This document shows positions 696 to 24,140 of a DNA stretch of 64,000 bases, piece after piece. The notes beneath the pieces are model-generated. The model worked only from the letters and a program-made list of their open reading frames with translations, was not told the origin of the DNA and did not search any database. The stretch covers positions 231,159 to 295,158 of the forward strand of contig CAWBPM010000002.1 of NCBI GenBank assembly GCA_963790825.1, given 5' to 3'. Both the position numbers and the translations under genes were made by a program. The stretch's first letter is position 1; the number at the start of each line of letters is the position of its first letter. Source of the stretch: Candidatus Levyibacteriota bacterium. GTDB taxonomy: Bacteria > Patescibacteriota > Microgenomatia > Levybacterales > UBA12049.

Positions 696-717
696 TATAT
701 TTTCACCCCCTTTCGCT

Positions 718-747
718 ACTCAAACCACTTTTTTCTCCAGTTTGAGT
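718..747 (-). promoter_or_regulatory. 8-bp stem hairpin (actcaaac...gtttgagt) in the 5' leader of the 99..695 gene, immediately upstream of its SD
   Basis: Inverted repeat read directly. Position is between the likely promoter and the RBS. Confidence 0.2.
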
Positions 748-1029
748 TCCAGAGTAACCGGAGCAGTCTTACTCGGTTAAACAAAAAAATCCAGTTAACA
801 CAACTGAATTCATTTCCTTTTAAATTTGATTGTAATATTTGGGCAGCACATAGAGAATTATCTCTCCATAGTGCCTCCGATAGCGGTCAGCCTGAATAGA
901 TAAAAGTAGTTTACACCTGGCTTAGATTCTCGTCAATTATGATCATAATAATCGAAATATATCAGAAGTAATAAAAAAAGTAAGGTAATTGTTATTGAAT
1001 AAATACTTATAGAACTTACACAGTAAATC

Positions 1030-1290
1030 GTGTATACTACTATTACTATGAATTATCTCTGGGACTACAACAAAAACGACTTGGAGAAAACAGAAGAAGG
1101 ACGAATACGTATTCTAGAGCGTAAAATTAATTACGGTCCGGATAAAGGGGAGAAAATAGCTTTGTCGGAAGTGAGAAAATACTGGGAGAAACTTCAATTA
1201 TTTCCACTACAGAGACGACTCTTCGAGTTGCTATTATGGGGACATTACATTTCCTCAGCAAAGAACAACAAAGCGTCTTTAACGAAATAG
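1030..1290 (+). CDS. Small partner protein (putative antitoxin/adaptor) overlapped with the downstream AbiEii-like gene; paralog of 2023..2226
   Basis: Shares an NYG-D-GEK...KYW-KL motif with ORF 2023..2226. Its 3' end overlaps the start of the next gene out of frame (ATG inside a TGG codon) in both copies. Real start may be the internal MNYLWDY. Confidence 0.4.
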   Translation: MYTTITMNYLWDYNKNDLEKTEEGRIRILERKINYGPDKGEKIALSEVRKYWEKLQLFPLQRRLFELLLWGHYISSAKNNKASLTK

Positions 1291-1892
1291 GCAAAAACAG
1301 CTATATCCGTAAGCAATTTTATTTAACGGGTGGAACTGCTTTAAGTGCTGTGTATTTACAGCATAGATACTCGGACGATTTGGATTTCTTTTCTGAGAGT
1401 AAATTCGATAACCAAATTATTTTTGCTTTTTTACAAGAGTTGAGTAAAAAACTCGCCTTTACCTTTCAACCCCGTTTTTTAGAAGTAACTTATATTTTTG
1501 ATCTCCTTTTTTCCAATAAATCTCCTCTAAAAATTGACTTTTCCTACTACCCATATAAAAGAATAGAAAAGAGTAAAGTAATTGAAGGACTGGAAATTGA
1601 TAGCTTAACTGATATTGCAATTAATAAGTTGTTTACTGTCCAGCAAAGAAATGATGTAAAGGATTTCGTAGATTTATACTACTTATTGCAGGATTTTGCT
1701 ATTTGGGATTTAATACACGGAGTGCAAAAGAAATTTAATATCAGCATAGAGCCATTACTTTTGGCTGCCGATTTTCTTAAAATCGATGATTTCACCTATC
1801 TTCCTCGTATGATTAAGCCGCTTACTTTAACTGAACTGAAAAATTTTTACCATCAGAAGGCACAAGATTTAGGAAAAGAATCTGTTAGGTGA
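1236..1892 (+). CDS. AbiEii/AbiGii-family nucleotidyltransferase (DUF1814, type IV TA toxin-like)
   Basis: The YLTGGTALSAVYLQHRYSDDLDFF motif matches the GGTAL...HR(F/Y)SxDLDF signature of the AbiEii NTase family. Confidence 0.65.
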   Translation: MGTLHFLSKEQQSVFNEIGKNSYIRKQFYLTGGTALSAVYLQHRYSDDLDFFSESKFDNQIIFAFLQELSKKLAFTFQPRFLEVTYIFDLLFSNKSPLKIDFSYYPYKRIEKSKVIEGLEIDSLTDIAINKLFTVQQRNDVKDFVDLYYLLQDFAIWDLIHGVQKKFNISIEPLLLAADFLKIDDFTYLPRMIKPLTLTELKNFYHQKAQDLGKESVR

Positions 1893-2022
1893 ACCACTTT
1901 TCATTCCATCTCATTCTTCGGATGAAACCCGACAAAAGATAAGAGATAGTTATTGGTTATTGGTGGTTTTGGACGCTCGGAACCTCACAAAGGACAGGTA
2001 AAATCTGGTATAATACAGATGT

Positions 2023-2226
2023 ATGTATAACTGGAATACGGATACCACCGAGCTTAAAAAGAACCCGGAAAAATACGCGATCTGGAAGATGGAGCAGATG
2101 ATTAACTACGGCTTGGATGGGGAAAAGCTGGACACAAAATTGGTAATAAAATATTGGGATAAACTAAGAATCGATCAGCAAAAACGTGACTTACTGGCAT
2201 TCCTAATATGGCAAAAACGATCTTAA
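2023..2226 (+). CDS. Small partner protein, second copy (paralog of 1030..1290)
   Basis: NYGLDGEKL...KYWDKL motif. The 3' end overlaps the next gene in the same configuration as the first copy. Confidence 0.4.
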   Translation: MYNWNTDTTELKKNPEKYAIWKMEQMINYGLDGEKLDTKLVIKYWDKLRIDQQKRDLLAFLIWQKRS

Positions 2227-2867
2227 CAAAGAAGCAGCAGCAACTTCTTCACGCGCTTTCTGAAGAAAACCTTATTAAGCAGCATTTTTATCTTTCCGGC
2301 GGCACAGCACTTGCGCAGTATTATCTGCAGCATAGATTATCAGAAGATTTGGATTTTTTCTCTCCGGAAGAAATTGATCCTAATTCCTTTCAGGTTATTA
2401 TGAAACGGATTAAGCAAAAAATTCAGTTTGAGAAAGTAACATATGAAAATTCATTTAACAGAAATCTTTTTTTTCTCCATTTTCCAGGTGAGGTTATAAA
2501 AACAGAATTTACCTATTATCCATTTGAACAAATAGAACAACCTAAAGAAATAGAAGGAATACATGTTGACAGCCTCATCGATATAGCAGTTAATAAAACT
2601 AATACAATTTTTACCAATCCTCGAACCCGTGATTTTATTGATTTATACCTCATTTTACAAAAAGAAAAGTGGATTTTTCCTGACATGATTAAAAAATCAA
2701 GGATAAAATTTGATATGTATGTTGACCCTCTACAAATAGCGCAACAACTTTTGTTTGTAACAAAAATACAAGATTATCCGCGTATGCTTATAGCTTTCGA
2801 TTTTAAGGCATGCGAAAAGTTTTGGCTGCAAGTTGCTAGAAGCCTCAAAAAAGATATTTTAAAATAA
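2208..2867 (+). CDS. AbiEii/AbiGii-family nucleotidyltransferase, second copy
   Basis: YLSGGTALAQYYLQHRLSEDLDFF motif. Roughly 40% identical to 1236..1892 over its length. Confidence 0.65.
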   Translation: MAKTILTKKQQQLLHALSEENLIKQHFYLSGGTALAQYYLQHRLSEDLDFFSPEEIDPNSFQVIMKRIKQKIQFEKVTYENSFNRNLFFLHFPGEVIKTEFTYYPFEQIEQPKEIEGIHVDSLIDIAVNKTNTIFTNPRTRDFIDLYLILQKEKWIFPDMIKKSRIKFDMYVDPLQIAQQLLFVTKIQDYPRMLIAFDFKACEKFWLQVARSLKKDILK

Positions 2868-2924
2868 AACGTATCTGTTTTTTTCGAAAAAGAAGGTTGA
2901 CAAAGCGCATTTATATACTATAGA

Positions 2925-3356
2925 ATGCGACCCACTATGTCTGAGGTAATTAAATGGGGGAGAGAATCTTTTACTATCAATAAAAATGCTGGCGGAGGCA
3001 GAGAGTTTGCTTGGGATGGCAGCCCCTTTAGATTACACAAATTACCTGCGTATGCAAGAGTATATCCGCAAGAATCAAAGCCTAATTGGCGTGGTCATGA
3101 GGGTAGGACCCTTTTTATTTATCAGGAACCTCCGGTCCATATAACTGGAGAACAAGGATATATGGCTCCAAAACCCTACGAAGCAAATAGTGAATATTTA
3201 CTAGGTGTAGGAGCCCAAATCTATCCAACTGGTGAATTTTATCCTCCGGAACTTCCGCAAATATTAACACACTTACAAAATGACTGGGGTTGGGATATTG
3301 ACCCACAACTGCGCACTCGTTTTGGTATTTCGGATCCGAAGCAGGAAGGAGAATAA
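2925..3356 (+). CDS. Hypothetical protein
   Basis: ORF only; no recognisable motif. TTGACA and a -10-like box lie immediately upstream, so the mRNA may be leaderless. Confidence 0.35.
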   Translation: MRPTMSEVIKWGRESFTINKNAGGGREFAWDGSPFRLHKLPAYARVYPQESKPNWRGHEGRTLFIYQEPPVHITGEQGYMAPKPYEANSEYLLGVGAQIYPTGEFYPPELPQILTHLQNDWGWDIDPQLRTRFGISDPKQEGE

Positions 3357-3359
3357 AAC

Positions 3360-3803
3360 TCAGGAGTTTACTTTTTTTATCGTCCACCAGGTGAAGTAAC
3401 CAAGTAGCGAAAGAACACCTGCAAGCAGTGTGCAAATAATTGCCAGAATGAGAAATCCAATCAGTGTATTTATTATGGAGGCAGACTTAGGAAAATGGGT
3501 TAAAGTAACTGCCATTAAACCCATAACATAAAAAAACCCGAATAAATTTCCACTGCGAAAACTAATTTCTTGTGTCTTCATAAACATTCCGAAAATGAGA
3601 CAAACAATGCTGCTTATTACCAGATCAACCCAAAACTCGCCTAATATAACCGTAAAGCTCAAAATACCCAGAACCAGGCCGAGAAGGATTGGGATGTATA
3701 TCTCTTTTCGTTGCATCAAAATAATAGTATATAAATTTGTTTTAATTTGCAAATTCTTTTCTTCCGTACTTTTAGTCGTAAAAGTACCAAAAGCTTTTTG
3801 CAA
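3360..3803 (-). CDS. Small integral membrane protein (about 4 TM), unknown function
   Basis: Four hydrophobic helices in the translation. Confidence 0.45.
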   Translation of the reverse strand: MQKAFGTFTTKSTEEKNLQIKTNLYTIILMQRKEIYIPILLGLVLGILSFTVILGEFWVDLVISSIVCLIFGMFMKTQEISFRSGNLFGFFYVMGLMAVTLTHFPKSASIINTLIGFLILAIICTLLAGVLSLLGYFTWWTIKKVNS

Positions 3804-3836
3804 GTGAAAGGTCGCTAAATTCTTAGTTCGCTAATC

Positions 3837-3891
3837 GGGGGAAATGCGCGCGCCCTCCAACATCCACCTGCGGTGGAGTTGGCGATCCCCC
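3837..3891. other. GC-rich nested hairpin element in an AT-rich divergent intergenic region (ggggga...ccaac-at-ccacc-tgc-ggtgg-a-gttgg...tccccc)
   Basis: Nested inverted repeats read directly. Strong local GC spike. No adjacent U-tract, so it is not a classic terminator. Confidence 0.3.
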
Positions 3892-4015
3892 TGATAACTG
3901 CACTAAGAATTTTTAACGCGCTGCTTTCAATTGCAATTAGGCGAAGAAAGGATAACGTGCTTTGTTTCAATGCTCACAGATGACGAAAATTAGAAAGGAT
4001 AAAATTACGCGCTGG

Positions 4016-4058
4016 GTTCAGTTGTAGGAATACTACAAAATGAGAGGAATTTTCTACT
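4016..4058. repeat. 43-nt direct repeat, copy 1 (gttcagttgtaggaatactacaaaatgagaggaattttctact); 40/43 identical to 5668..5710
   Basis: Direct comparison of the two copies. It is followed at 4059..4082 by a second motif (ggtacgctttgatggcatcctgac) that recurs at 10861..10888. Confidence 0.6.
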
Positions 4059-4126
4059 GGTACGCTTTGATGGCATCCTGACAAAAGGAAAGTGGTAGTA
4101 CCCAAGCCTAAAATATATGCTATACT

Positions 4127-4426
4127 TTGGTAGTTATGAAACAGTCTGTTCTTGAAGAAATAAAAACAAAAGCTCTTCCGATACTTAAACGTGCAGGTGT
4201 TAAAAAAGCGGCGCTTTTCGGCTCTTATGTTCGTGGAGAAGAAACAGAAAAAAGCGATGTGGATATCTTGGTAGATCTCCCATCTAACGCAACGCTTATA
4301 GACTTGGTTGGTATAAAACAAGATCTTGAGGAAAAATTACATAAAAAAGTTGATGTAGTTACCTATAATGGCATCTGTCACCTAATCAAAGATTCTGTTC
4401 TTAAAAGTCAATATCCTGTCTTATGA
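4127..4426 (+). CDS. MNT-type minimal nucleotidyltransferase (antitoxin of a HepT/MNT module)
   Basis: GSYVRGEETEKSDVDILVDL is the GS-x9-DxD Pol-beta NTase motif. About 100 aa. Stop overlaps the next start (ATGA). Confidence 0.8.
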   Translation: MVVMKQSVLEEIKTKALPILKRAGVKKAALFGSYVRGEETEKSDVDILVDLPSNATLIDLVGIKQDLEEKLHKKVDVVTYNGICHLIKDSVLKSQYPVL

Positions 4427-4770
4427 AAAAAGATCCAGAGGTTTATCTTACTCATATCTTAGATTCAATAAATCTACTCGAAAGATATTTACAAGGAGTT
4501 ACAGAAAGCCAATTTTATTCATCTGAAGAAAAACAAGATCTTGCCGTAAGAAGAATTGAAGTAATCGGTGAGGCAACAAAAAATATCCCTGATTTTTTTA
4601 AAGAAAATTACCCTGCTATTCCCTGGAAGAGAATGGCAGGCATGAGAGATGTTTTAATTCATCAATACGATGATATAGATATGAAAATAGTTTGGAAAAC
4701 CATAACACAATTTGTCCCTGAATTGAAAAAGCAAATTGGAACACTCTTAAAAAATTCATCCGGTACCTGA
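4423..4770 (+). CDS. HepT-like HEPN toxin (DUF86)
   Basis: R-x4-HxY motif (RDVLIHQY) near the C-terminus. 4-nt overlap with the MNT gene. Confidence 0.8.
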   Translation: MKKDPEVYLTHILDSINLLERYLQGVTESQFYSSEEKQDLAVRRIEVIGEATKNIPDFFKENYPAIPWKRMAGMRDVLIHQYDDIDMKIVWKTITQFVPELKKQIGTLLKNSSGT

Positions 4771-4888
4771 CAAGAAACAAAAGATAGTTATTCTTTTCTA
4801 TGTACTTTCTGCCGAGAAAGTAGCAAAGCTCTCTTGCCAGAACAGTAATTTGACAGCCAGGCTATAGTATGATACATTCCGAATCAAT

Positions 4889-5620
4889 ATGGCAATGCAA
4901 TATCTGGAAAACGAGTTACGCAGAACAGGCGACAGACGCGACTCGAAATTCGCAAATGCAATCGCGAAAATGCGCAGAGACAGACGCTCCGATATCCTAC
5001 TCCCGCTACCAGAACCAATTGTATACACTCCTCCAATTGAAGTACTACCGCTAGTTCCGGAAGATCCTATTGAAATAAAGTGCTTTTCCGATGAACAACG
5101 GGATGTTCTGGATGAAAATGGTTACATTATTTATGACTTATCAGGAGAATCAGTGAACACGCAAAAGCAGACAAGAAATGCTACTTACTTAACAAGAGAG
5201 GATATCGGACCCGTGACATCCATGTGCTCACAAGTTGCGATAAATCCCAAAGAGCTATTTTTACCGGATAGTAATAATAAAACTCTGCGCCAACAGGAAT
5301 TACTGGTTGAGAAGTTTTCACAGGGATTAGAAAAGAAGCTGCGAGGCATTAGTGTAAAAGCAATTATAGGAGAGGCTCCCGATTATGTTGAACTTGACTC
5401 TAAACATTATGACGCAACATACTATGGAGATGGACTGCACTTATTCGAAAGAGATGAATACATATCCAGATTTGCGCGCACAAAAACTCCAACCGGCAAC
5501 TCGAGCGTCGCTCAAGTTGGTTGGGTTAAAAGCTATAGAAGTGGCATAGAAGTTAAACATCTCCATGCAATGGTTGGTGATCCTTATGTATATGCTGCTC
5601 CTCTGATAGTACCGGAGTAA
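4889..5620 (+). CDS. Hypothetical protein, cytoplasmic, no recognisable domain
   Basis: ORF with good coding look. Lies inside the direct-repeat-bounded segment. Confidence 0.4.
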   Translation: MAMQYLENELRRTGDRRDSKFANAIAKMRRDRRSDILLPLPEPIVYTPPIEVLPLVPEDPIEIKCFSDEQRDVLDENGYIIYDLSGESVNTQKQTRNATYLTREDIGPVTSMCSQVAINPKELFLPDSNNKTLRQQELLVEKFSQGLEKKLRGISVKAIIGEAPDYVELDSKHYDATYYGDGLHLFERDEYISRFARTKTPTGNSSVAQVGWVKSYRSGIEVKHLHAMVGDPYVYAAPLIVPE

Positions 5621-5667
5621 ATTAGGTATTAGTTGATGGTTATTAGATAATGGAAGAAACGGGCGGT

Positions 5668-5710
5668 GTTCAATTGCAGGAATACGACAAAATGAGAGGA
5701 ATTTTCTACT
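5668..5710. repeat. 43-nt direct repeat, copy 2
   Basis: 40/43 identity to 4016..4058, same orientation. Confidence 0.6.
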
Positions 5711-5861
5711 TATAAGCCTCATTTACTTTTAATTTAAATCTCTCTTAACAGCAAAAAGCAGGATGTTCTCCATTAACCCCAAGCACCTAACCCTTGCAGC
5801 ATTATAGGATATGTTATATAATCATACTCTAGGATTACTGCCGTGAAAACAAATCTCAATT

Positions 5862-7151
5862 ATGATCGAAATACTCTATTTAATCTTCCTCATGCTAATG
5901 CTTGCACAAGGGATACTTAGTATCTATCTCTCACTATACATCTGGGAAGATCCAGAAAGACTGGATCGCATTGGTTCACCAAAAGAATTCGAGAAACCAC
6001 AAACTGGCTTCACTATCTTAGTTCCAGCCCGTCATGAGCAAAAAGTAATTGGTGAAACCATTAAGTCAATCTCAAATTCAAATTATCCACAGGAATTATT
6101 AGAATTACTCATTATTTGTGAAGAAAAAGACACAAAAACCATTATCGCAGCAGAACGTGCAATTGTTTTATCCGGTATTACGAATGCCAGGGTTATTACT
6201 TTTAATGACTTTCCTATTAATAAGCCACACAGTCTCAATAAAGGACTCTGGGCAGCAAGCAAAGAAGTTATTGTCATATTTGACGCGGAAGATGAAGTAA
6301 GTCCTGATATTTTTAACGTCGCCAATACAATATTTATTAGCCAAAACCCCGACATCGTCCAAGCAGGAGTGCAGCTCATGAACTATGATTCACACTGGTT
6401 TAGTCCGCACAATGTACTCGAATATTATCTTTGGTTCAAATCCCGCATGCATTTTAATACGCGGCTTGGTGTGGTTCCTCTCGGGGGAAATACAGTTTTT
6501 TTCAAAATTACACAGCTTTTAGAAATCGGCGGATGGGATGAAAATTGCTTAACGGAAGACGCGGAAATCGGCGTCAGACTTTCCAGTAGGGAAGCAAATA
6601 TCGTCTCAACTTATGATTCCAGACATGTGACTAAAGAGGAAACTCCCGGATCTCTAGGTCAATTTATTAAACAGCGAACCAGATGGAACCAAGGATTTAT
6701 CCAAGTTCTCAAACTTGGTTATTGGAAAGAATATGATTCCTTACTAAAAAAGCTTTTTTGTATATATACGTTATCTTTTCCTATTATTCAGGCGATTCTT
6801 ATTATTAGTATGCCTGTAGTTTTTTACTACGGACTAACCCAAAAGCTACCTATAGAACTGAGTCTCTTGAGCTTTATTCCATTATTTTTGATAGGCATAC
6901 AGTATGTTATCGGCGTCATTGCTCTTAGGGAATTTATCTTAGAACAAAAACTTAAACACAAAAAAATGATTTATCTTTCAATGTTATTAACACTTATTCC
7001 ATATCAACTGCTCCTCGGACTCGGAGCACTGCGGGCAGTCTACAGGGAAATATTCGGACTTAATAACTGGGAAAAAACAGTACATGAAGGAGTACATAGA
7101 AATATATTCCCGAAGTTTTCGCTGGATGTTAATCTGCTCGACCAATCATGA
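5862..7151 (+). CDS. Processive family-2 glycosyltransferase (cellulose/chitin/PNAG-synthase-like, QxxRW) with C-terminal TM helices
   Basis: ILVPARHE, FDAEDE (DxD), TED and QRTRW motifs, plus four or more C-terminal TM helices. Confidence 0.8.
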   Translation: MIEILYLIFLMLMLAQGILSIYLSLYIWEDPERLDRIGSPKEFEKPQTGFTILVPARHEQKVIGETIKSISNSNYPQELLELLIICEEKDTKTIIAAERAIVLSGITNARVITFNDFPINKPHSLNKGLWAASKEVIVIFDAEDEVSPDIFNVANTIFISQNPDIVQAGVQLMNYDSHWFSPHNVLEYYLWFKSRMHFNTRLGVVPLGGNTVFFKITQLLEIGGWDENCLTEDAEIGVRLSSREANIVSTYDSRHVTKEETPGSLGQFIKQRTRWNQGFIQVLKLGYWKEYDSLLKKLFCIYTLSFPIIQAILIISMPVVFYYGLTQKLPIELSLLSFIPLFLIGIQYVIGVIALREFILEQKLKHKKMIYLSMLLTLIPYQLLLGLGALRAVYREIFGLNNWEKTVHEGVHRNIFPKFSLDVNLLDQS

Positions 7152-7546
7152 GACAATTTATACATTACGCAAAAATAAAACTTAGGTCTCCGGAAGTGTG
7201 GTATGTCGCACTCCTTTTAGTGATTGCTGCGTTTGCACACGGATGGAATATGTTCCATTTTCCTTACTTTGAAAATGATGAGGCGACGTATGTTTCACAG
7301 GCCTGGTCTTTTATTCATACCGGTAAACTGGCACCGTATACGTATTATTATGACCATGCACCGCTCGGCTGGATGTTCTTGGGGCTATGGTTCCTACTAA
7401 CCGGAGGTTTAACTACATTCGGACATAATCCTCTAATTTCGGGAAGAATATTTATCTTTATTCTCCACATGTTCTCAGTCCTACTTCTCTATATCATTAC
7501 TAAACGCGTCACGAACAAAAACTGGCAGCGTCCCTGGCTGTTATAG
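7148..7546 (+). CDS. N-terminal fragment of a PMT/ArnT-like GT-C glycosyltransferase; same gene as 7504..9801 but interrupted by a frameshift
   Basis: DE-x-Y loop (ENDEATYV) and H-x-PLG motif typical of protein-O-mannosyltransferase-like GT-C enzymes. The reading frame continues in another frame from 7504. Confidence 0.6.
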   Translation: MRQFIHYAKIKLRSPEVWYVALLLVIAAFAHGWNMFHFPYFENDEATYVSQAWSFIHTGKLAPYTYYYDHAPLGWMFLGLWFLLTGGLTTFGHNPLISGRIFIFILHMFSVLLLYIITKRVTNKNWQRPWLL

Positions 7547-9801
7547 TCTTTTCACTATCACCACTAGAGATATATTTCGGACGGCGAGTACTTCTCGATA
7601 ACATTATGGTTTTCTGGATGCTGCTATCACTTTTCTACGCAACGTGCACGCCTCAAGGGTTACGTAACGTTATACTAAGTGCCATAACATTTGCAATAGC
7701 AACCCTGACTAAAGAAAACGCATTCTTTTTAGGACCGGTAATTCTTTATATGACTTGGGGTTATGCACGTACTCGTGTTCGAATATGGTCAATAAGTCAA
7801 TGGATTGCTATCGCGGCAGTAATTATTGCATTATATCCCCTATATGCAAGTTTAAAAGGAGAACTTTTTGCAAGCGGTACTTTCCTTGGTGGATTCAAAC
7901 AGCATGTAAGCTTAATTCAAACAACAATCGAGCAAGGGTCACGAGGAGTATTTGCTTTCCCCTGGAATAGCAAAAGCGATTTTTATGTAAATCTTAATGA
8001 ATGGATATTTCGTGATCCCTTCATTATTATAATCGGTGCGATATGCCTATTCACTAGTCTTATTCTAAATGAACGCTATCGTGAGATTAAAGCTATTGCC
8101 TTAACAGCACTTGCAGAAATTATTTTTCTGGCGCGGGGTAAACTTGTAATCGACTACTATATTCTTGCGATTCTTCCTTTACTAGCAATGACTATTGGTA
8201 TCATGATTGCGCGACCACTAGTTTGGGCAAAGAACCATATCAGTCCGTATGGGTATTCGTTGACTATAGCATTTCTTCTAACAATTATTTTCGTTGGATA
8301 TGGAACACCCGCATTTTCACGAGATGAAACAACCAATCAACAGAAAGCAATCACCTGGATCGAACAGCATATTAGCAAAAATGCATATATCGCAATTGAC
8401 AATTACGCTTATCCGGAATTACATGATGTTGATGGATACAAAAATGCAGATTACGAGTTCAAAGTACAATATGATCCTCAAATTAATAAGGGTAAGTATC
8501 ATCAAGACTACTATAAAACCAACTATCTACTCATAACACATGAGGAAATTGTACAAATGGCATCCAAACAACTCCCATTTATTCAGGCTGCATTTAATCA
8601 CAGTCAATTAGTTGCAGATTTCACTAACAATACTACTAGCTATATTGATATCGGCAAATTGATAAGTACAAATGGTGACTGGGCACAAATTTATAAAGTC
8701 GATAATAAAAACGATGGGTTATTGGTAGATAGTTGGCGCAGTTATAAATTAAATTTTATTAGGGAAAACGGACAAGTTGTTGATCCTTCTCAAGCAAATA
8801 CTACCTCCGAGGGAGAATCATATGCACTATTACGGTCTATAACTATGAATGACAAAATAGAATTTGATAGGGTGTGGAATTGGACACAAAAAAATATTCA
8901 GATACGAAAAGGAGATAGTTTATTTACCTGGAAAATATCACTTGATTCATTGGGAGCTAATCATATAGACGACACAAACTCTGCATCTGATGCTGATGAA
9001 GATATTGCCTTAGCACTTTATCAAGCTTATCAAAAATGGGGAGATAAAAAATATCTCACAGAGTCTCAAAAAATAGTAAGTGATATTTGGAAAAAAGAAG
9101 TGGTTAGACGTAATAATGAATTCTATCTCATTTCCTCGCCTGAAGGAACATACGGTGAAAATTTATTAGTAAACCCATCTTATATTGCCCCTGCTAACTA
9201 TAAAATCTTTGCGAAAATTGATCCAAAGCACAATTGGCAGCAGTTAGTCAATGATTCATACAGTCTTTTAACAGACATACAAAAGAGATCTTCGGTTGGT
9301 TTACCAACAAATTGGGTGGCAGTTGCACCAAGTGGTGATCTTATCTCAGCTTCTCATATGGGAGTACAATCGGAAGATTATTTTGGCTACGATGCGTTTC
9401 GGGTAGATTGGAGAATGGCTGATGATGTACAGGACCCGCGTGCACAAAAAATACTAACTATTCTTAATACTTTTTATCAAGACCAATGGTCAAAAAACAA
9501 TATGATCGCTTCAGAATATGATATTAATGGGGTAGCATCATCAGATTATGCTGATATTCCCTCAAGTGCTGGAGCAGTAATTGCTTTACATGCAATGAAA
9601 AATATACTTACAGATACCATCTATAAGCAGTCACTTTTGAATAACTTTAACACAAACGGTTTTTATTGGGGACAGCAATCAAATTATTACAGTCAAAACT
9701 GGGGAGCGTTTGCGGTTCAATATCTCGGGGTAGGAGGACCAAACAGCAGGGGAGACGTACTGACGCAAAAAGTAGCGATGCTATCGTTAGTGAAGAAATA
9801 A
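7504..9801 (+). CDS. Continuation of the PMT-like GT-C glycosyltransferase (TM core) fused to a C-terminal GH8 domain. The ORF track lists it from 7606, but the frame is open from 7504
   Basis: LAASLAVIVFSLSPLEIYFGRRVLLDN continues the GT-C loop. C-terminal TSEGESYAL and ASDADEDIALALYQAYQKW match the two GH8 signature motifs. Confidence 0.7.
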   Translation, partial: TRHEQKLAASLAVIVFSLSPLEIYFGRRVLLDNIMVFWMLLSLFYATCTPQGLRNVILSAITFAIATLTKENAFFLGPVILYMTWGYARTRVRIWSISQWIAIAAVIIALYPLYASLKGELFASGTFLGGFKQHVSLIQTTIEQGSRGVFAFPWNSKSDFYVNLNEWIFRDPFIIIIGAICLFTSLILNERYREIKAIALTALAEIIFLARGKLVIDYYILAILPLLAMTIGIMIARPLVWAKNHISPYGYSLTIAFLLTIIFVGYGTPAFSRDETTNQQKAITWIEQHISKNAYIAIDNYAYPELHDVDGYKNADYEFKVQYDPQINKGKYHQDYYKTNYLLITHEEIVQMASKQLPFIQAAFNHSQLVADFTNNTTSYIDIGKLISTNGDWAQIYKVDNKNDGLLVDSWRSYKLNFIRENGQVVDPSQANTTSEGESYALLRSITMNDKIEFDRVWNWTQKNIQIRKGDSLFTWKISLDSLGANHIDDTNSASDADEDIALALYQAYQKWGDKKYLTESQKIVSDIWKKEVVRRNNEFYLISSPEGTYGENLLVNPSYIAPANYKIFAKIDPKHNWQQLVNDSYSLLTDIQKRSSVGLPTNWVAVAPSGDLISASHMGVQSEDYFGYDAFRVDWRMADDVQDPRAQKILTILNTFYQDQWSKNNMIASEYDINGVASSDYADIPSSAGAVIALHAMKNILTDTIYKQSLLNNFNTNGFYWGQQSNYYSQNWGAFAVQYLGVGGPNSRGDVLTQKVAMLSLVKK

Positions 9802-9805
9802 AATA

Positions 9806-10543
9806 ATGAAAAACAAAAAGAACCTCGTCGTAATCTTCCTCGTACTTCTCATAGGTGTCCGGGTCATGCTGCATCTTCCAATCCTATCTGAGCAAAAAGC
9901 AAAAATTGTTTCAGAAAAAGATTTTGGTGTTAATATTTCAGGCGGTGAGTTCCAACAGGCAATGTATACGGACAAAAAGTATACAGGCTATAGGTATTTT
10001 CATAGTAAAGGACTGACACTACTCAGAATTCCCTTTAAGTGGGAAACTATTCAGCCAACACCTATGGGAGAATTGGACACGAAACAGCTGGCAAGCTATA
10101 CGGGTATGATTACCGTAGCGCAAAAAGCCGGAGAGAAAGTCATTATTGAGCCGCATAATTTCGGAAGATATAACAACATTCCGTTAACAGACAAAGACAA
10201 TAATAGTTTTTCAGATCTCTGGAAAAAGTTAGCGGCAATCTATAAAGGATACTCGGGAATCTGGGGATATGAACTGATGAATGAGCCGCATGATATACCG
10301 GGGAACTGTGAAACATGGAGAACGCTGTCACAAGCCGGAATTAACGCGATTCGCTCCGAAGACATAACGCATTATATTCTAGTTCCGGGATACAGCTGGC
10401 AGAGCGCGAGTGATTGGCAAAGGGAAAGTGATTGTTTAAAAAATCTCTCCGATCCTGAAAATAAACTGCTCTATTCGGCTCATGAATACTTCGACGAGAT
10501 CAAAGCGGAACGTACAATAGTACCTGTACAGATACAAATATAG
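9806..10543 (+). CDS. GH5 endoglucanase-like protein with signal anchor, N-terminal part (frameshifted near 10497..10501)
   Basis: GVNISGGEF, FRIPFKWE and YELMNEPH (catalytic acid NEP) motifs. Confidence 0.7.
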   Translation: MKNKKNLVVIFLVLLIGVRVMLHLPILSEQKAKIVSEKDFGVNISGGEFQQAMYTDKKYTGYRYFHSKGLTLLRIPFKWETIQPTPMGELDTKQLASYTGMITVAQKAGEKVIIEPHNFGRYNNIPLTDKDNNSFSDLWKKLAAIYKGYSGIWGYELMNEPHDIPGNCETWRTLSQAGINAIRSEDITHYILVPGYSWQSASDWQRESDCLKNLSDPENKLLYSAHEYFDEIKAERTIVPVQIQI

Positions 10544-10824
10544 GGGTAACCCGTGCAAAACCTTTTACCGCTTGGCTCAGAAAAAATAATAAGATCGGAA
10601 TTTTTACCGAGTATGGGATTCCACGGGGCTCGTGCTGGCAATTAACTCTGGGTAAATTTATGCGGTACATTTATAAAAGTCCTAATATCATTGGCGGAAC
10701 ATACTGGGCGGCAGGGGAATATTGGGGAGATTACAAATTATCAGTAGAACAGGATATAAACGGGGATAAACCACAAATGAAAATACTTCAAAAATATCCG
10801 ACAAAATTAAATATAGCCAGCTAA
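10486..10824 (+). CDS. C-terminal part of the same GH5 gene in the +1 frame
   Basis: DQSGTY...KIGIFTEYGIP (nucleophile TEYG) ...GGTYWAAGEYW. Joining to the upstream frame restores HEYFDE|DQSGTY. Confidence 0.6.
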   Translation: MLRRDQSGTYNSTCTDTNIGVTRAKPFTAWLRKNNKIGIFTEYGIPRGSCWQLTLGKFMRYIYKSPNIIGGTYWAAGEYWGDYKLSVEQDINGDKPQMKILQKYPTKLNIAS

Positions 10825-10841
10825 TAATCTAAAAGTAATCT

Positions 10842-10888
10842 AAAAGGAATTTAGCAGCCTTACTGATGCGCTTCGATGGCATCATGAG
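10842..10888. repeat. Partial copy of the composite intergenic motif (aaaaggaattt...tactgatgcgcttcgatggcatcatgag), related to 4048..4082
   Basis: 24/28 identity over the gatggcatc core. Confidence 0.4.
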
Positions 10889-11243
10889 TGATAATCTTCA
10901 TCTCTGTGATAGTTTATATGCTTATTTAACCATTACGGTTCAATTAACCGTTATGGTAAAAGGAAAGAGGTTGGAAGGCCATTTTTACCCGTTAATAACC
11001 GGCAATTTAACGGGTAATCTTTCGAACCAGTATTAGTATACAGCTTTCGAAAGTCAGCGGTTTTTCCAGCCGTTCAAAAAATCCCAAAAAGGGCGCTGGA
11101 GAGGGAGTTCAGGCACCACAACGATTCAACCGACGGTCAGCGGTTATAACGGTAAGTAGGCTGTTAAATCAGCTAATCGTGTGTTTGTACAACATTTTTT
11201 AAACAGCCGGAGGAAGCGAACGGCGGGGAGAGGAGGGAATGGA

Positions 11244-12431
11244 TTAGCGCAGAACGGATCTGGTTATTTCTCCGATCTGTCTTATGTTTAAGGAGATATA
11301 GGCGGCAAGGAGGGATGTAATCGGAACCGCGATAATAAGCGCGCTGCTTCCGACCATAGTCCGGATAATCTCTTCCATCGTTGCCTCGTTATTTAAAATT
11401 ACCCACCAGGGAAGATGTGCAGGATTAAGGGCAAAGAAAATAAATATCGCGAGTGATGTTCCGGCGTATGCCAGGACCAATGTGTTAACTAAGGAGGCGA
11501 TATGCTCCCGACCTATGAGCATGCCTTTTTTAAATAAATCCAGGAAATGCTGCTCGGGGTTTTCCCGGGCCAGAGTGAAGATCGCAACCGATTGCGTCGT
11601 CGTGATATCATTTAAAGCTCCCAAGGTTCCGATTATTATACTTCCCAGGAGAAGTCCCTGGGGATTTATCAGGTGAGTTGTACCGATTACAATACTTTGG
11701 ACGTCTTCATTTCCCAGACCGAAGAGGTGAAGAAATTGTACAGCGAAGCCGGCAATATAGACTGCGATAAACAGCGAAATTCCGGTGCCTAAGACTGCCA
11801 TGGTCGTTTTAATCGATATGCCGTGTGCTACATAAGTCGTAAGAAGTAAAATGAAAACCGACGCTGTCAAACAGACCGACAAGGGATCGGAGCCCTTAAT
11901 AATAGATGGAATAATATAGACAGAAATCGTCAGAATGCTAATTGTCAGACCTAAAAGCGCACCAACTCCTTTACTGCCGGCAACAGCGATAATAAGAATT
12001 GAGAAACCTACGAGGATAAGCCAAAAATTATTCAGCCGGTATGGCTCATAAACGCTGTAGGTCATTTTTTTAGTCGTATTATCAGGTTTACTGTCGATGA
12101 CAACCGAGTCTCCCCGGCGTATTCGTTGATCTACCTTAAGTCTCTCGTCGGCAGAGTAGAGGACACTGACTATTTTCCCATTTTCCGCTCCGCCCAGGAT
12201 TTTTATTTTCAGATTTTCGCTGTCACTTTTCTCTTTGTCAAATACCTGCTCTCTCTGAGACAGTACTTCCAAAACATCTCCGCGGACAAACATCTCCTGC
12301 GTTTGCGGTTTGTCAGATGTAGCAGCAAGTACACTGAGCGGTAATACGAAATTAAAAAAGAAAATGAGCAGAACGAGAAAAAATTGTATGAATGATTTGT
12401 TTCGTGACATACTAAGATTCTTAGAATTCAT
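11244..12431 (-). CDS. YibE/F-family-like polytopic membrane protein (N-terminal extracellular domain plus about 7 TM)
   Basis: Signal/TM, a roughly 100-aa soluble segment, then seven hydrophobic helices. The architecture is typical of YibE/F proteins. Confidence 0.45.
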   Translation of the reverse strand: MNSKNLSMSRNKSFIQFFLVLLIFFFNFVLPLSVLAATSDKPQTQEMFVRGDVLEVLSQREQVFDKEKSDSENLKIKILGGAENGKIVSVLYSADERLKVDQRIRRGDSVVIDSKPDNTTKKMTYSVYEPYRLNNFWLILVGFSILIIAVAGSKGVGALLGLTISILTISVYIIPSIIKGSDPLSVCLTASVFILLLTTYVAHGISIKTTMAVLGTGISLFIAVYIAGFAVQFLHLFGLGNEDVQSIVIGTTHLINPQGLLLGSIIIGTLGALNDITTTQSVAIFTLARENPEQHFLDLFKKGMLIGREHIASLVNTLVLAYAGTSLAIFIFFALNPAHLPWWVILNNEATMEEIIRTMVGSSALIIAVPITSLLAAYISLNIRQIGEITRSVLR

Positions 12432-12495
12432 ATTATAGAGGAATTTGTAAATAGTTTCAAAGTTAACAAGGTACTATCTATGAACAGAGGAGTTA

Positions 12496-13173
12496 TTATT
12501 TCATTGCCGCGTCGATTGCCGACTGCAAATTATCATAAGTCGCATCCGTGCTAAGAACTTCACCATTGACGTAAAATGTGGGCGTAAAGTTTACCCCGAG
12601 CTTCTCAGCGTCGGCTTGATCTCTGGTAATATTACTTGCATATTTACTTCCCGTTACATCGCTTTGGAATTTAGTCATATTTAACTTCAGCTTTTTTGCG
12701 TACTTTAAGAAATAATCCATCGCATGTGTACTTTCTCCCCAGGAATCCTGATTACTGTAAAGCAGATCGTGCATCTGCCAAAACTTTCCCTGACTACCGG
12801 CTGCTTCGGCCGACTCTGCGGCAGCAAGTTCGTTTTGATGCTCGGGGATGGGAAAATTACGAAAGACAAGCTTTATTTTCCCGTTGTAGTCTTTAAGCAG
12901 TTGTTTTGTGACAGGATAGGCAGTGGCACAGGCGGGACATTGATAATCACCGAATTCAACGATTGTCACCTTCGCGTTTTTGTTACCGATTACATAAGCG
13001 TTTTTTCCGAGTAAAAGAGCTTGATCTACTTTGGTGGCAGACACTGTCGGGCTGGATTTACCAAGTAAAAATACACTTCCGATAACAATTGCCAGCGTTA
13101 TAATCCCGATGCCGCCTATGATTTTTACATCCTGCGTCATTCTCTGCTTCTCCTCATATAAATAATCATACAA
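12496..13173 (-). CDS. Membrane-anchored DsbA/BdbD-like thiol:disulfide oxidoreductase (thioredoxin fold, CPAC active site)
   Basis: N-terminal TM helix. FGDYQCPACA active-site motif. Confidence 0.75.
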   Translation of the reverse strand: MYDYLYEEKQRMTQDVKIIGGIGIITLAIVIGSVFLLGKSSPTVSATKVDQALLLGKNAYVIGNKNAKVTIVEFGDYQCPACATAYPVTKQLLKDYNGKIKLVFRNFPIPEHQNELAAAESAEAAGSQGKFWQMHDLLYSNQDSWGESTHAMDYFLKYAKKLKLNMTKFQSDVTGSKYASNITRDQADAEKLGVNFTPTFYVNGEVLSTDATYDNLQSAIDAAMK

Positions 13174-13616
13174 ACTGAAATTATAGTGAAAGCAGTGAAA
13201 GAAAGCAAGGGAACAGACAGGAAACCGAACCAGAGATTGAAATGAGTGGTGCAGGAAACACCAATGGTACAGGGAGCAACACTTTCCGGCAAGATATGAT
13301 AATACAATAAGTTGTGATAAAGCGAGATACTGAATCCGATAATGCTTAGCGGCAGTACGTATTTATAAATTCCCGGGTCTTTACGTAAAATTCCGACCAT
13401 CAGAAGCAAAACCAACGGATACATACAAATCCTTTGGTACCAGCAGAGAACACAAGGAGTCCAGTGCAGTATTTCACTGAGACTCAGGCTGCCGAGTGTG
13501 GCGACAATTGCCTGCAGTAAGGCGAGGTAGAGAATATTATCAACGATAAATTTTTTCATGCTGTGGATTTGTTCTTTGTAAGGTTTCATTATAAACGAAT
13601 TAGTAGAAACACTCAA
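13137..13616 (-). CDS. DsbB/BdbC-like disulfide bond formation protein
   Basis: 4 TM helices. CVLCWYQR (CxxC in the first periplasmic loop) and a second Cys pair. The true start is probably the internal MKKF. Confidence 0.7.
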   Translation of the reverse strand: MSVSTNSFIMKPYKEQIHSMKKFIVDNILYLALLQAIVATLGSLSLSEILHWTPCVLCWYQRICMYPLVLLLMVGILRKDPGIYKYVLPLSIIGFSISLYHNLLYYHILPESVAPCTIGVSCTTHFNLWFGFLSVPLLSFTAFTIISVCMIIYMRRSRE

Positions 13617-13677
13617 TATTTGAATAATGACTTAGCGACTAGGAGACAAATAACAGATTAATTTGAGCTGAAGAGAT

Positions 13678-14700
13678 TTGATCCCCAAAAAAACTATTAT
13701 ATATACTATAATCATTTTCAGTATGAATAAACGGGATGTTTTATTTCTTTTTCTGACGATTATTTCCCTGGCTGTTGTTCTGGTCACTGATATTATTACT
13801 CCGCCTCAACTTATCCTTGCTTCTTTGTACACAATTCCTATTTTGATTTGCGCCTATCACTTTGGGCCAAAAATAATTAGTGTTGTTACCTTTTTTGTGA
13901 TCATCATTTTTTCAACTCATACTTTATATACGGAAAACATAACATTGATTAATATTTTCTTCCAGGACATCGGATTTTTAATTGTTGCATTTCTGGCTAT
14001 GCAATTCAGCCTGCAAAGGAAAAAAAATGAAGAATCGTTATGGCATTTACAACTTTTCATCAATATGATCTCACACGACCTGGTTCAGCCAATCACTGCT
14101 GCTAAATTATATGTGCAAATTCTCAGAAAATATCCCGACAGGAATGTAAGGTTAAAAGCAGCGAAAATTGCAACACCTCTGCACTATCTGCAAAAACTTA
14201 TCTTCGATCTGAAAGATATTGTGCAGGCAAGGAGCGGAGAGTTTAGCGTATATCCGGCGGAGATGGATTTATGCAGGTTACTAAGTGACGTCGTAGAAGA
14301 GCAACAGAGAAATGACAAAAAGCATACAATAATTTTGCGCATACCGAAAAAAATAATCGGGAAATGGGACAGGGGACGGCTGAATCAGGTACTTACCAAT
14401 CTTATCTCAAATGCGATTAAATATTCTGAGAAAGGGATAATCACCGTGTCTGCGAAGCAAAAAAGGCGGGTTGTTTTAGTTTCCGTTGCCGATAAGGGAC
14501 CGGGAATTCCCGAAAACCAGCAGCAGCTAATATTTACGCCTTTTAAGCGTTTGGAACAAAACAGGAATATCGGGGGAAGCGGTCTGGGACTTTATATTTG
14601 TAAACTTATAGTTGAGGGTCATCAGGGAAGAATTTGGGTAGAAAGTACGAAGAACAGGGGCTCGACATTTTTCTTTACCCTTCCGCGAACCAGCCGATAA
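13678..14700 (+). CDS. Membrane sensor histidine kinase (HisKA + HATPase_c)
   Basis: H-box ISHDLVQP. N, G1 and G2 boxes (NAIKYS, DKGPGI, GSGLGL). N-terminal TM helices. No response regulator adjacent. Confidence 0.8.
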   Translation: MIPKKTIIYTIIIFSMNKRDVLFLFLTIISLAVVLVTDIITPPQLILASLYTIPILICAYHFGPKIISVVTFFVIIIFSTHTLYTENITLINIFFQDIGFLIVAFLAMQFSLQRKKNEESLWHLQLFINMISHDLVQPITAAKLYVQILRKYPDRNVRLKAAKIATPLHYLQKLIFDLKDIVQARSGEFSVYPAEMDLCRLLSDVVEEQQRNDKKHTIILRIPKKIIGKWDRGRLNQVLTNLISNAIKYSEKGIITVSAKQKRRVVLVSVADKGPGIPENQQQLIFTPFKRLEQNRNIGGSGLGLYICKLIVEGHQGRIWVESTKNRGSTFFFTLPRTSR

Positions 14701-14715
14701 TTCGATTGAGCTTCA

Positions 14716-16524
14716 TTAATTACACTTTGACGAGGAGCACATATCTATTCTTGTATTATCAACGCTCAGCTTAATTTTGAATCCCAGCCGAATACCTTGT
14801 GACAAAAGATTAAATAACAGGTTAGTCTCACTACTTGGGTAATACACATAAGCCTTTTTGGCGGCTTTTAATGCTGCATTTTTGTTGCCGATTCTATTTT
14901 CCTGCAAAGCAGACAATAACCATAAATAACCATCAGTGGGAAATTTTTTAAGCGTTGAATTTATAAAATCTTCACAAACTTCAGGTTTTTCATAAATTAA
15001 ATAAATTATTGCCAGATCTTCATATGAAACATAAAAAGGAGCATTTTTAATCGAAGTTCTGTATGCTTCTTCCGCTTTTTTGATTTGTCCGCTTTGTTGG
15101 TAGTAAGATGCAAGTGCGTTCCAGTTTACATCTCCTTTAGGATTAAGTTGTATTGATTTTTGCAAGTGTAAATATGCGGCATTAAATTTATTCCGCTTCA
15201 TAAGCTGTACGGCAAATGCACTTTGCATGTAACTATTATCCTGAGAATAATTAATATCATGAGAAAGCAAAGAATATTGATCATGAAAATTTGAATTTCT
15301 TTGTACAGTTATTAGGGAAAAAACGATTATTATTAAGGTTATGCTAATAAAAATTATTTTTTGTAGTTTTTTATTATGAACGTATAACTCAAACATCAGC
15401 CCAAACATTCCTAAGAGTCCCACGATAGGTAAATAAAACCATCTGTTTGAGACCGTTGCATCCAAAGGTATAAGAATATGCGAGTGAAAAAGTAAACCCA
15501 GACAAAATATAGAAAGAAATAAAATAAATGTATTAAAATATTTGTTATGTTTTTTCAGAATATTCCATCCTGTAATTGACAACGATATGATAAAGAAAAT
15601 ATCAAAAATAACTGCCATAAGAAATTCAAGTCTGGTTTTTGTTGTAACCAGCCACATTTGATCAAGTGCAAGATGGATGGGAAATATAAAAGTTTTCAGA
15701 TAATAAAAAATTATTAAAGGTACAGTTAATAATCGGGTAATAAAATTTGCATGAGTAATAGGGGAAAAAGTCGTACTGTCAGCAATTCCCCGGACAAATA
15801 AAATTCTGAATATTATATAAAATATTACCGTAGAAGAATAAATTAAAAAAGTCTTTATAAAATATTCCCGCTTAGAAAAGAGGAATTTGTATATCAATAT
15901 TATTAGTACAAAAAGAATTCCTGTTTCTTTGGCTAATATTGATATGAGTAAAAGAAATCCTGATATGCAGAACGTTTTATATGAGGGCTTAAGCCGCAGT
16001 TCCAAATAAAAAGCAAGCATGGCGAAAAAGAAAAACAAAACATCCTGCAGTCCGGCAATATAGTTAACTGATTCTGCCTGAATCGGATGAACTAAAAACA
16101 AAAGGGAAATAAAGAAAGAAATATTTTTCCTGATAAAATACTTTAACAACAGAAAAACTAAAATTGCGTTTGAAATATGAAGTATAATTTGCAATAAATG
16201 AAACGGGAAAGGATTTAGTCCGAATAGTGCGTAGAGAATTGTATAAGAAAAGGCTACGAGCGGACGGTAATAATTTCCTGTAAGTTTATTTATGTCCCCG
16301 TTATAAAACATACTGCCGAAGAAAAAATTGGGGATATTGGAAATTGAATGTATGGCAATATTTTGTACCACCAGTCCATCGTCATCAGCCACAAAACCGT
16401 TAAAAAGACTATTAAAAAATACAATGAGTCCGATAATGATAATCCAATGGATCGCTTTAAATGTGGTCAATGGTACAAAAAGACTAATAGGTGAGAAATT
16501 ATTCCGCTCTTTCTCATCATGCAT
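14716..16524 (-). CDS. TMTC-like protein: polytopic GT-C-type membrane domain (DUF1736/PMT_2-like) plus C-terminal TPR repeats
   Basis: N-terminal FNGFVADD...YYRPL motif. About 11 TM helices. C-terminal TPR-like repeats. Paralog of 53545..55248. Confidence 0.6.
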   Translation of the reverse strand: MHDEKERNNFSPISLFVPLTTFKAIHWIIIIGLIVFFNSLFNGFVADDDGLVVQNIAIHSISNIPNFFFGSMFYNGDINKLTGNYYRPLVAFSYTILYALFGLNPFPFHLLQIILHISNAILVFLLLKYFIRKNISFFISLLFLVHPIQAESVNYIAGLQDVLFFFFAMLAFYLELRLKPSYKTFCISGFLLLISILAKETGILFVLIILIYKFLFSKREYFIKTFLIYSSTVIFYIIFRILFVRGIADSTTFSPITHANFITRLLTVPLIIFYYLKTFIFPIHLALDQMWLVTTKTRLEFLMAVIFDIFFIISLSITGWNILKKHNKYFNTFILFLSIFCLGLLFHSHILIPLDATVSNRWFYLPIVGLLGMFGLMFELYVHNKKLQKIIFISITLIIIVFSLITVQRNSNFHDQYSLLSHDINYSQDNSYMQSAFAVQLMKRNKFNAAYLHLQKSIQLNPKGDVNWNALASYYQQSGQIKKAEEAYRTSIKNAPFYVSYEDLAIIYLIYEKPEVCEDFINSTLKKFPTDGYLWLLSALQENRIGNKNAALKAAKKAYVYYPSSETNLLFNLLSQGIRLGFKIKLSVDNTRIDMCSSSKCN

Positions 16525-16601
16525 GGTTTTATAGTAACATTCCGGGATTTAAAGTTCAAGAAAAGTTGACATTCTTTTATTCATAGTAAATACTATAATC
16601 T

Positions 16602-17273: not shown

Positions 17274-17386
17274 TGAAATTCCAGCTTCACTGTTAAATAA
17301 ATCAATTCTTCTCCCTACTTTAAGACTCAACTTACCAGAACGGTAGCCAAAAAGTTTTCCAACCTGCAAAGCCGAGTTTGACCCGG

Positions 17387-17458: not shown

Positions 17459-17522
17459 AATAACTAACAACCAATAACTAATAACCATGTGTATTGTAGC
17501 AAATTCAGAAGCCTTTTTCAGC

Positions 17523-24134: not shown

Positions 24135-24140
24135 ATAAGT

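Follow-up and report, generated by a model that had tools for sequence, protein, structure and literature searches.

The 64,000-nucleotide stretch analysed here (the window) comes from contig CAWBPM010000002.1 of a Candidatus Levyibacteriota bacterium, and at 5862..10824 it holds three closely packed genes on the + strand that encode a membrane glycosyltransferase of family 2 (GT2), a GT-C glycosyltransferase fused to a C-terminal glycoside hydrolase of family 8 (GT-C::GH8) and a glycoside hydrolase of family 5 (GH5). The stop codon (TGA) of the GT2 gene overlaps the start codon of the GT-C::GH8 gene in the sequence ATGA at 7148..7151, and 4 nt separate the GH8 stop from the GH5 start at 9806. 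A preliminary description of this DNA had proposed three co-directional genes with four domains; Pfam placed all four domains at these coordinates, but only the GT2 gene is intact, and the Pfam matches given below for the other two products are those of frame-corrected translations (884 and 339 amino acids, respectively).

The GT2 protein matches PF13641 (E = 7e-39) and carries the motifs DAED (residues 141–144; 6282..6293), TED (231–233; 6552..6560) and QRTRW (271–275; 6672..6686), all invariant across 59 homologues, as is a C-terminal W-E-K-T-x-H motif that we take to resemble the (S/T)WGT(R/K) gating-loop motif of small class I synthases. The AlphaFold2 model, with a predicted local distance difference test score (pLDDT) of 93.5, has cellulose synthase BcsA as its best Foldseek match (4p00; E = 4.7e-15, TM 0.66), the other top matches being Escherichia coli BcsA and the hyaluronan synthases (HAS) of Xenopus and a Chlorella virus, and by sequence, too, the top full-length match in the Protein Data Bank (PDB) is BcsA. 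Model and hydropathy together indicate one N-terminal transmembrane helix, about three C-terminal transmembrane helices and additional interface helices, and the Pfam scan gave no match to a PilZ domain. The protein scores far under all NCBIfam equivalog cut-offs (the highest score is 76 bits where 520 are needed, for an XrtP-associated glycosyltransferase; 61 against 422 for PgaC_IcaA, 45 against 699 for CelA and 24 against 992 for PRK11498), and because it lies below every one of them it is, to judge by sequence, a separate family inside the processive class. Family match, QRTRW motif and the closeness of the model to BcsA and HAS support the earlier assignment to the processive class of QxxRW-containing GT2 enzymes and argue for a membrane-embedded synthase, whose processivity itself we infer.

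The second gene encodes a PMT-like GT-C enzyme with a C-terminal GH8 domain, as the preliminary description had read it. PMT (PF02366) matches residues 27–229 with 36.3 bits against a cut-off of 22.7, most relatives match PF13231 and the AlphaFold2 model of the frame-corrected 884-residue protein (pLDDT 90.8) has AglB and STT3 among its Foldseek matches. Because about 11 transmembrane helices are predicted, the C terminus would lie outside the cytoplasm. In the first outer loop, Asp44-Glu45 (7277..7282) of the sequence FENDEATY is invariant in 67 homologues, and further invariant residues in the same set include R146, R147, D151 and N152. The linker at 8308..8706 had no Pfam match and contains conserved DETxxQ and STNGDW motifs.

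The GH8 domain itself (PF01270, E = 5e-45, residues 529–842 of 884) aligns with the cellulase CelA (1cem) such that Glu555 (8809..8811), Asp615 (8989..8991) and Asp749 (9391..9393) correspond to CelA Glu95, Asp152 and Asp278, the catalytic acid being marked by the E95Q mutant entry 1kwf. The two stretches singled out beforehand as GH8 motifs, TSEGESYAL and ASDADEDIALAL, are those that align with CelA catalytic Glu95 and Asp152, and all three residues are shared by 90% or more of the 67 homologues. They fit the pattern of an (α/α)6 GH8 enzyme of subfamily 8a, with an acid Glu, the Asp of a DAD motif and a base Asp. In a profile comparison with PDB sequences, CelA, BcsZ and CMCax were matched with E values of 1e-45 to 1e-30 and chitosanases and xylanases with about 1e-22 or weaker; the best folds were CMCax and BcsZ (Foldseek TM to target 0.82–0.85). 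The sequence, here a domain of a larger protein, reached 135 of the 299 bits that the BcsZ equivalog NF008305 requires. We ranked a chitin- or chitosan-type polymer lower as a product, given a GH8 profile of 1e-45 for cellulase-type enzymes against 1e-22 for chitosanases.

The third gene product, described beforehand as a signal-anchored, endoglucanase-like GH5, indeed has an N-terminal signal anchor (residues 8–26 of 339), matches PF00150 (E = 8.5e-41) and has endo-1,4-β-glucanases as its nearest PDB entries (E = 5e-55; these include 4ee9, 1h1n and 3qr3). As in (β/α)8 enzymes of this family, its acid/base is Glu160 in the sequence NEP (10283..10285) and its nucleophile Glu269 in FTEYG (10609..10611), and as encoded in the window these two catalytic residues sit in different frames.

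Both hydrolase genes are interrupted by a single-base deletion, one lesion per gene, with no further stops and no conserved residues lost. The GT-C::GH8 gene is split into open reading frames of 132 and 731 codons in different frames (7148..7546 and 7606..9801), with the shift from frame 2 to frame 1 falling in a run of five A at 7517..7521 where six are expected: the window reads AAC AAA AAC TGG, and AAC AAA AAA CTG would be needed (..ACG AAC AAA AAA CTG GCA.., T N K K L A). In the full-length relatives aligned, 16 at first and 67 in the end, the frame continues through this site uninterrupted, as ITKRVT-RQKLAASLAVIVFSLSPLE or ITKRVT-(R/N)(Q/K)KLAAS. We found no near-identical sequence spanning this lesion, and apart from the N-terminal fragment itself, its protein cluster contains only P0126, which belongs to a different relative. 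The GH5 gene is split into 9806..10543, encoding a 245-residue fragment, and about 10497..10824 in a shifted frame; it lacks one C that contig L084 of a Logan assembly (run ERR11594402) has between positions 10496 and 10497. That contig is 99.93% identical to window positions 8524..11256 over 2,734 nt (blastn), differs from it by just one intergenic mismatch and the one extra C, and encodes an intact GH5 of 339 residues (P0123) that falls in the same protein cluster as the 245-residue fragment.

These lesions could mean that the copy in the window is a decaying remnant, with both deletions real, GT-C::GH8 and GH5 pseudogenes and only GT2 intact. They are the sole two frame-breaking lesions found in the 64 kb and lie in adjacent genes, a partner resembling dolichol-phosphate mannose synthase (DPMS), present in most relatives (see below), is absent here, and for this 751-kb contig the database lists no longer products of these genes than fragments of 731, 245 and 54 residues. 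However, an independent assembly 99.93% identical to the window carries the C and an intact GH5, and the single lesions have left the reading frames free of other stops and of substitutions at conserved sites. The first deletion falls within a homopolymer, and only 3 nt separate the second from a GATC site; contexts of either kind are typical of long-read errors. We therefore regard decay of this copy as somewhat unlikely and consider assembly errors, or very recent variants, the more likely origin. The question concerns this copy only, is compatible with any of the functional readings weighed below and its probability is not to be summed with theirs; in either case the lesions are recent and leave the nature of the module untouched. 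We also consider phase variation or programmed frameshifting unlikely, as the run is only five or six A long, the second lesion lies outside any repeat and all relatives read through. A third candidate frameshift, at 34174..34757, was rejected as two separate small genes among toxin–antitoxin pairs. The features of the locus are collected in Table 1.

Table 1. Genes, domains and frameshift sites of the locus, in window coordinates
Feature	Position	Strand	Basis and remarks
Membrane GT2, 429 residues, intact	5862..7151	+	PF13641, AlphaFold2 model, motifs, hydropathy
GT-C::GH8, 5' fragment (132-residue open reading frame)	7148..7546	+	Coding to about 7521; first transmembrane helix and first outer loop
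Frameshift site 1, run of five A	7517..7521	+	Intact relatives imply six A
GT-C::GH8, remainder	7522..9801	+	Open reading frame from ATG at 7606 (731 residues); membrane domain to about 8300
α/β linker, about 130 residues	8308..8706	+	Between membrane domain and GH8; predicted secondary structure
GH8 catalytic domain, BcsZ/CelA cellulase subgroup	8719..9726	+	PF01270, CelA alignment, Foldseek
GH5, 5' part	9806..10496	+	Signal anchor, Glu160 of NEP; wrong-frame stop at 10543
GH5, 3' part, shifted frame	10497..10824	+	Glu269 of FTEYG; C missing at 10496/10497

A protein search with GT-C::GH8 returned 482 clusters at E <= 1e-5, and among the best 120 of these nearly all proteins are 840–920 residues long and combine GH8 with PMT or PMT_2. 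Scanning one genome per species gave 307 matches, from which 79 loci were fetched and examined. Most of the 79 are labelled Patescibacteria, spanning Saccharimonadia (the nearest named relatives), Roizman-, Woese-, Levyi- and Amesbacteria, and Pace-, Magasanik-, Morani-, Doudna- and Andersenbacteria, and the module also occurs in cultured Demequina (Actinomycetes) and in Chloroflexi. The GT-C and GH8 parts, which might have proved to be separate genes elsewhere, are fused in every relative examined. The preliminary description had not recognized this architecture from characterized systems; we likewise found no paper that describes it, but with 307 species-level matches it is common, mostly in uncultured bacteria. 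Many metagenome-assembled genomes with the module (L006, L010, L012, L018, L020, L024, L025, L027 and others) are labelled Gammaproteobacteria, Pseudomonadales or Bdellovibrionales, although the proteins they encode cluster with patescibacterial ones and their chromosomes measure 1.0–1.6 Mb; these labels may be placeholders.

Of the 70 loci that include 1.5 kb or more of sequence ahead of the fusion gene, 66 (94%) have a GT2 orthologue directly upstream of it in the same orientation, often with the same 4-nt overlap, and clustering of all neighbouring open reading frames revealed no other universal partner. In about 25 loci the GT2 gene is longer, encoding 700–800 residues, with a PF00535 domain ahead of PF13641. 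This PF00535 domain resembles DPMS (best PDB match Pyrococcus furiosus DPMS, E = 1.6e-37, then ArnC and GtrB). When separate genes are counted too, a DPMS-like GT2 is fused to or directly upstream of the QxxRW GT2 in 37 of the 60 loci that extend far enough to show it. The gene order in Demequina rhizosphaerae is a DPMS-like gene with GtrA_DPMS_TM, the QxxRW GT2 and PMT_2::GH8, with GH5 nearby on the opposite strand, and in a Chloroflexi genome (L070), as in protein P0241, GtrA_DPMS_TM is fused to the QxxRW GT2; DPMS/GtrB-like, GtrA-type and GT-C parts stand together in both Demequina (L065) and Chloroflexi (L070). On this comparative evidence a DPMS-like GT2, with or without a GtrA-type domain, belongs to the conserved core of the relatives, where it plausibly gives the GT-C domain a donor supply. 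Some GT2 orthologues (P0207, P0244) have an added GAF domain, located at the C terminus in P0207, where its position was inspected; this domain may provide a regulatory input in place of the PilZ domain of BcsA.

Searching the 64-kb window by tblastn with the DPMS-like domain found no such gene, and the closest relative (69% identity; loci L001–L004) has the GT2 and fusion pair with neither a DPMS-like gene nearby nor a GH5. The place of the DPMS-like gene of relatives is taken in the window by a 243-residue open reading frame (4889..5620) that matches no family. A GT2 gene at 18638..19342 was rejected as the missing DPMS-like enzyme: its nearest structures are the protein glycosyltransferases GmaR and SunS, not DPMS, GtrB or ArnC. 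About 4 kb downstream of the locus, at 14716..16524 (- strand), lies a second GT-C gene encoding 602 residues with PMT_2 and TPR repeats, and because of it the organism probably makes polyprenyl-phosphate sugars despite having no DPMS-like gene in the window.

Among the 79 loci, a GH5 gene recurs near the module in 11 and a GH6 gene in 6, a gene for an amine-oxidase-like flavoprotein in 19 and one for an ABC exporter in 7. The GH5 that the preliminary description had counted as a member of the locus is an occasional accessory outside the conserved core. The flavoprotein (PF01593, E = 5e-28, at 1562..2878 of locus L036) is also encoded in 18 other loci; in L036, where its position was checked, its gene immediately precedes that of DPMS::GT2, and by analogy with DprE1 it might modify the lipid carrier or a lipid-linked sugar.

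GH5, GH6 and GH8 are classic cellulase families, and a degradative role would have GH8 and GH5 act as surface cellulases against β-glucans of a host or of plant detritus, with the GT-C part mainly a membrane anchor and the GT2 gene an unrelated neighbour. Patescibacteria are, to judge by the titles of surveys, often annotated as carbohydrate degraders, and a dockerin-bearing protein is encoded 14 kb away. We nevertheless consider this role very unlikely: the pairing of GT2 with the fusion is conserved in 94% of loci across phyla together with the translational coupling, the catalytic-loop residues of GT-C are invariant, fusions tie the module to DPMS-like and GtrA-type genes, and the GH8 groups with BcsZ and CMCax, which are associated with synthesis.

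We instead regard it as highly probable that these genes form a biosynthetic module for a surface glycan. The fuller proposal, that the locus is a copy of a widespread cell-surface glycan module that makes and modifies a β-1,4-glucan-like polymer, stands in our estimate at even odds, and the identification of the polymer as a β-1,4-glucan is just as finely balanced. What suggests a β-1,4-glucan-like product is the fold of the GT2, the subgroup of the GH8 and the occurrence of GH5 and GH6 nearby, both β-1,4-glucanase families. The idea, put forward beforehand, of a β-glucan-like polymer that is made and trimmed here thus agrees with the affinities of GT2, GH8 and GH5, but the nature of the polymer is deduced from them.

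In the proposed mechanism, GT2 would polymerize a β-linked glycan, most likely β-1,4-glucan, from a nucleotide sugar and thread the chain outward. The translationally coupled GT-C::GH8 would sit beside it in the membrane, with two activities facing the emerging chain on the outside: the PMT-like GT-C site, which could transfer a sugar from a polyprenyl-phosphate carrier onto the chain or the chain's acceptor, decorating or anchoring it, and the BcsZ-like, inverting GH8, which could trim or release the chain while held at the membrane by the fusion. The carrier-linked sugar would come from a DPMS-like GT2, which in this genome would have to be encoded elsewhere, and GH5 would be an optional second, signal-anchored endoglucanase. 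That all parts act on one substrate at one site is argued from the repeated fusions of GtrA-type or DPMS-like domains to GT2 and of GT-C to GH8, and the roles proposed for GT-C (decorating or anchoring) and GH8 (trimming or releasing) follow from that presumed shared substrate and site. These bacteria have no periplasm, which is why we suggest that the GH8 is kept at the membrane by fusion; by analogy with BcsZ, the fusion would be a simple way of holding such an enzyme at its synthase in a cell of this kind. Action of the GT-C domain on the polymer itself is a tentative assignment that we lean against, and a single machine, in which the extruded glucan is handed straight from GT2 to the GT-C and its on-board endoglucanase in a putative physical complex, we hold to be doubtful.

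Several points weigh against the proposed synthesis and modification of a secreted glucan. With about four transmembrane helices, fewer than BcsA or HAS, the GT2 may not form a full channel alone and may export no polymer at all; QxxRW and ED motifs also occur in lipid glycosyltransferases that add a single sugar, and the GT2 falls well short of the equivalog cut-offs given above. The acceptors known for PMT-family GT-C enzymes are proteins, not glucans, and since family GH8 is inverting, a transglycosylating role is unlikely. The window contains no DPMS-like gene, and both of its frame-breaking lesions fall within this locus, a clustering expected at about 0.3% by length under uniform error. 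Finally, what speaks for the module family as a whole comes from sequences and models.

An alternative is a lipid-linked pathway, in which the QxxRW GT2 is not a secreting synthase but extends a polyprenyl-phosphate-hexose or another membrane lipid. A DPMS-like enzyme would make the polyprenyl-phosphate-hexose, the GT2 would add one or several sugars and help to flip the product, the GT-C would pass the sugar, or a short glycan, on to an acceptor protein or wall acceptor, and GH8 would trim the product or recognize the acceptor glycan. The fusion of DPMS-like or GtrA-type domains to the QxxRW GT2 in many relatives suggests one membrane-bound substrate, and the few transmembrane helices of the GT2, its weak matches to Glyco_transf_21 (lipid glucosyltransferase) and the presence of PcManGT, a polyprenyl-phosphate mannose synthase, among its fold matches point the same way. 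However, the best fold and sequence matches of the GT2 are polymer synthases, an endoglucanase with a long, BcsZ-like cleft implies a polymeric substrate, and neither the window's module nor its closest relative has an adjacent DPMS-like gene. Known GT-C enzymes that use monophosphate carriers, moreover, transfer single sugars. Taken together, we judge a lipid-linked pathway distinctly unlikely.

Around the locus, dense toxin–antitoxin genes, with two AbiEii and an MNT/HepT pair, lie just upstream (1236..4770), and several small paired genes around 34 kb (33212..35599) are presumed to be toxin–antitoxin genes as well. Directly downstream (11244..13616, - strand) are a YibE/F-like membrane protein and a DsbA-like/DsbB pair, and at L001 DsbD- and thioredoxin-like genes lie upstream of the module; an association of the module with envelope redox genes is possible. 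Genes at 17523..20615 (- strand) encode a GT4, the GmaR/SunS-like GT2 mentioned above (234 residues) and another GT4, and may form a protein- or wall-glycosylation unit apart from this locus. The gene at 24141..25997 (+ strand) encodes a 618-residue protein with a C-terminal dockerin type I domain (E = 5e-7) and opens a stretch of raised G+C content (0.43–0.45, about 22–30 kb) with several large open reading frames. An Rfam scan of the window found three tRNAs only, none within the locus, and a promoter and terminator scan of 5400..11400 gave fewer sites than shuffled sequence and was uninformative.

Patescibacteria account for a large part of bacterial diversity, and to our knowledge their surface polymers are almost wholly undescribed. 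The module belongs to the few envelope systems of several genes whose conservation extends from Saccharimonadia and Microgenomates to Actinomycetes and Chloroflexi. In it, two usually separate principles are coupled, a processive-class synthase and a lipid-carrier-dependent GT-C, and it places a glucanase that is catalytically intact by its residues on the transferase itself. All component families are known, and the database names of the proteins are automatic, for example 'glycosyl hydrolase family 8' and 'glycosyltransferase family 39 protein'; a full-text literature search, of incomplete coverage such that a prior description is possible, returned no paper on a GT-C::GH8 protein or on the module. 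Should the GT-C act on a polysaccharide, the known acceptor range of the PMT family would widen, and the module would show how bacteria without a periplasm hold a BcsZ-like enzyme at a synthase. If GT2 and GT-C::GH8 did work as one machine, it would be a hybrid of synthase-dependent and polyprenyl-phosphate-dependent glycan assembly, and its product could be a principal surface polymer of many Patescibacteria, possibly serving host attachment. Because cultured Demequina carry the module, genetics and biochemistry are feasible.

Among known systems, the bacterial cellulose (Bcs) operons, with BcsA and the periplasmic GH8 enzyme BcsZ or CMCax, likewise set a membrane GT2 with D, DxD, TED and QxxRW motifs beside a GH8. 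The BcsA/BcsZ logic invoked in the preliminary description holds for the fold and sequence affinities, but the core of the relatives adds a DPMS-like GT2 with or without a GtrA-type domain. The window's GT2, half as large as BcsA, has about four transmembrane helices and no PilZ domain, and neither the BcsA nor the BcsZ equivalog threshold is reached; the GH8 is C-terminal on an 11-helix GT-C rather than free in the periplasm. BcsB and BcsC were found neither among the window genes scanned (99..25997) nor in the recurrent neighbour clusters of 81 loci. The locus is thus Bcs-like in its synthase-plus-GH8 logic and not a member of the Bcs family.

In size (about 430 residues) the GT2 resembles the small class I synthases (HasA, NodC, PgaC/IcaA and the chitin synthase core), with a similar layout of transmembrane helices around one GT-A domain and with HAS among its best folds. 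Its score is, however, far below the PgaC/IcaA equivalog cut-off, no small partner resembling PgaD or IcaD was seen, and in contrast to the synthases of this group that make GlcNAc polymers, the hydrolases accompanying the module point to a glucan.

Three-component systems (GtrB/GtrA/GtrC-type, ArnC/ArnT, CsbB/GtcA/YfhO, GacI/GacL and Ppm1/Pmt) offer a parallel for the other half of the module. In these, a DPMS- or GtrB-like enzyme loads polyprenyl phosphate, a GtrA-type protein aids crossing of the membrane and a GT-C transfers the sugar outside, a trio that is co-encoded in relatives of the module. They have neither a second, processive-type GT2 nor a hydrolase on the GT-C; the window itself lacks the DPMS-like gene. 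Clostridial CcsA/CcsZ (GH5) and Streptomyces CslA/GlxA/CslZ (GH6) pair a synthase-type GT2 with a membrane-tethered β-1,4-glucanase, much as relatives of the module have GH5 or GH6 nearby; these systems have no GT-C partner, and the window's GH5 is likened to CcsZ by family only.

The mycobacterial Emb arabinosyltransferases offer a comparison for the architecture of the fusion. Their C-terminal domain is lectin-like and non-catalytic, whereas here it is a GH8 with intact catalytic residues, and the two share no sequence relationship. As PMC3044687 describes them, Emb proteins are polytopic GT-C enzymes whose C-terminal extracytoplasmic sugar-binding domain holds the polymer acceptor, and EmbC, to that extent, provides a precedent for a GT-C with a C-terminal domain that engages its own polymer acceptor.

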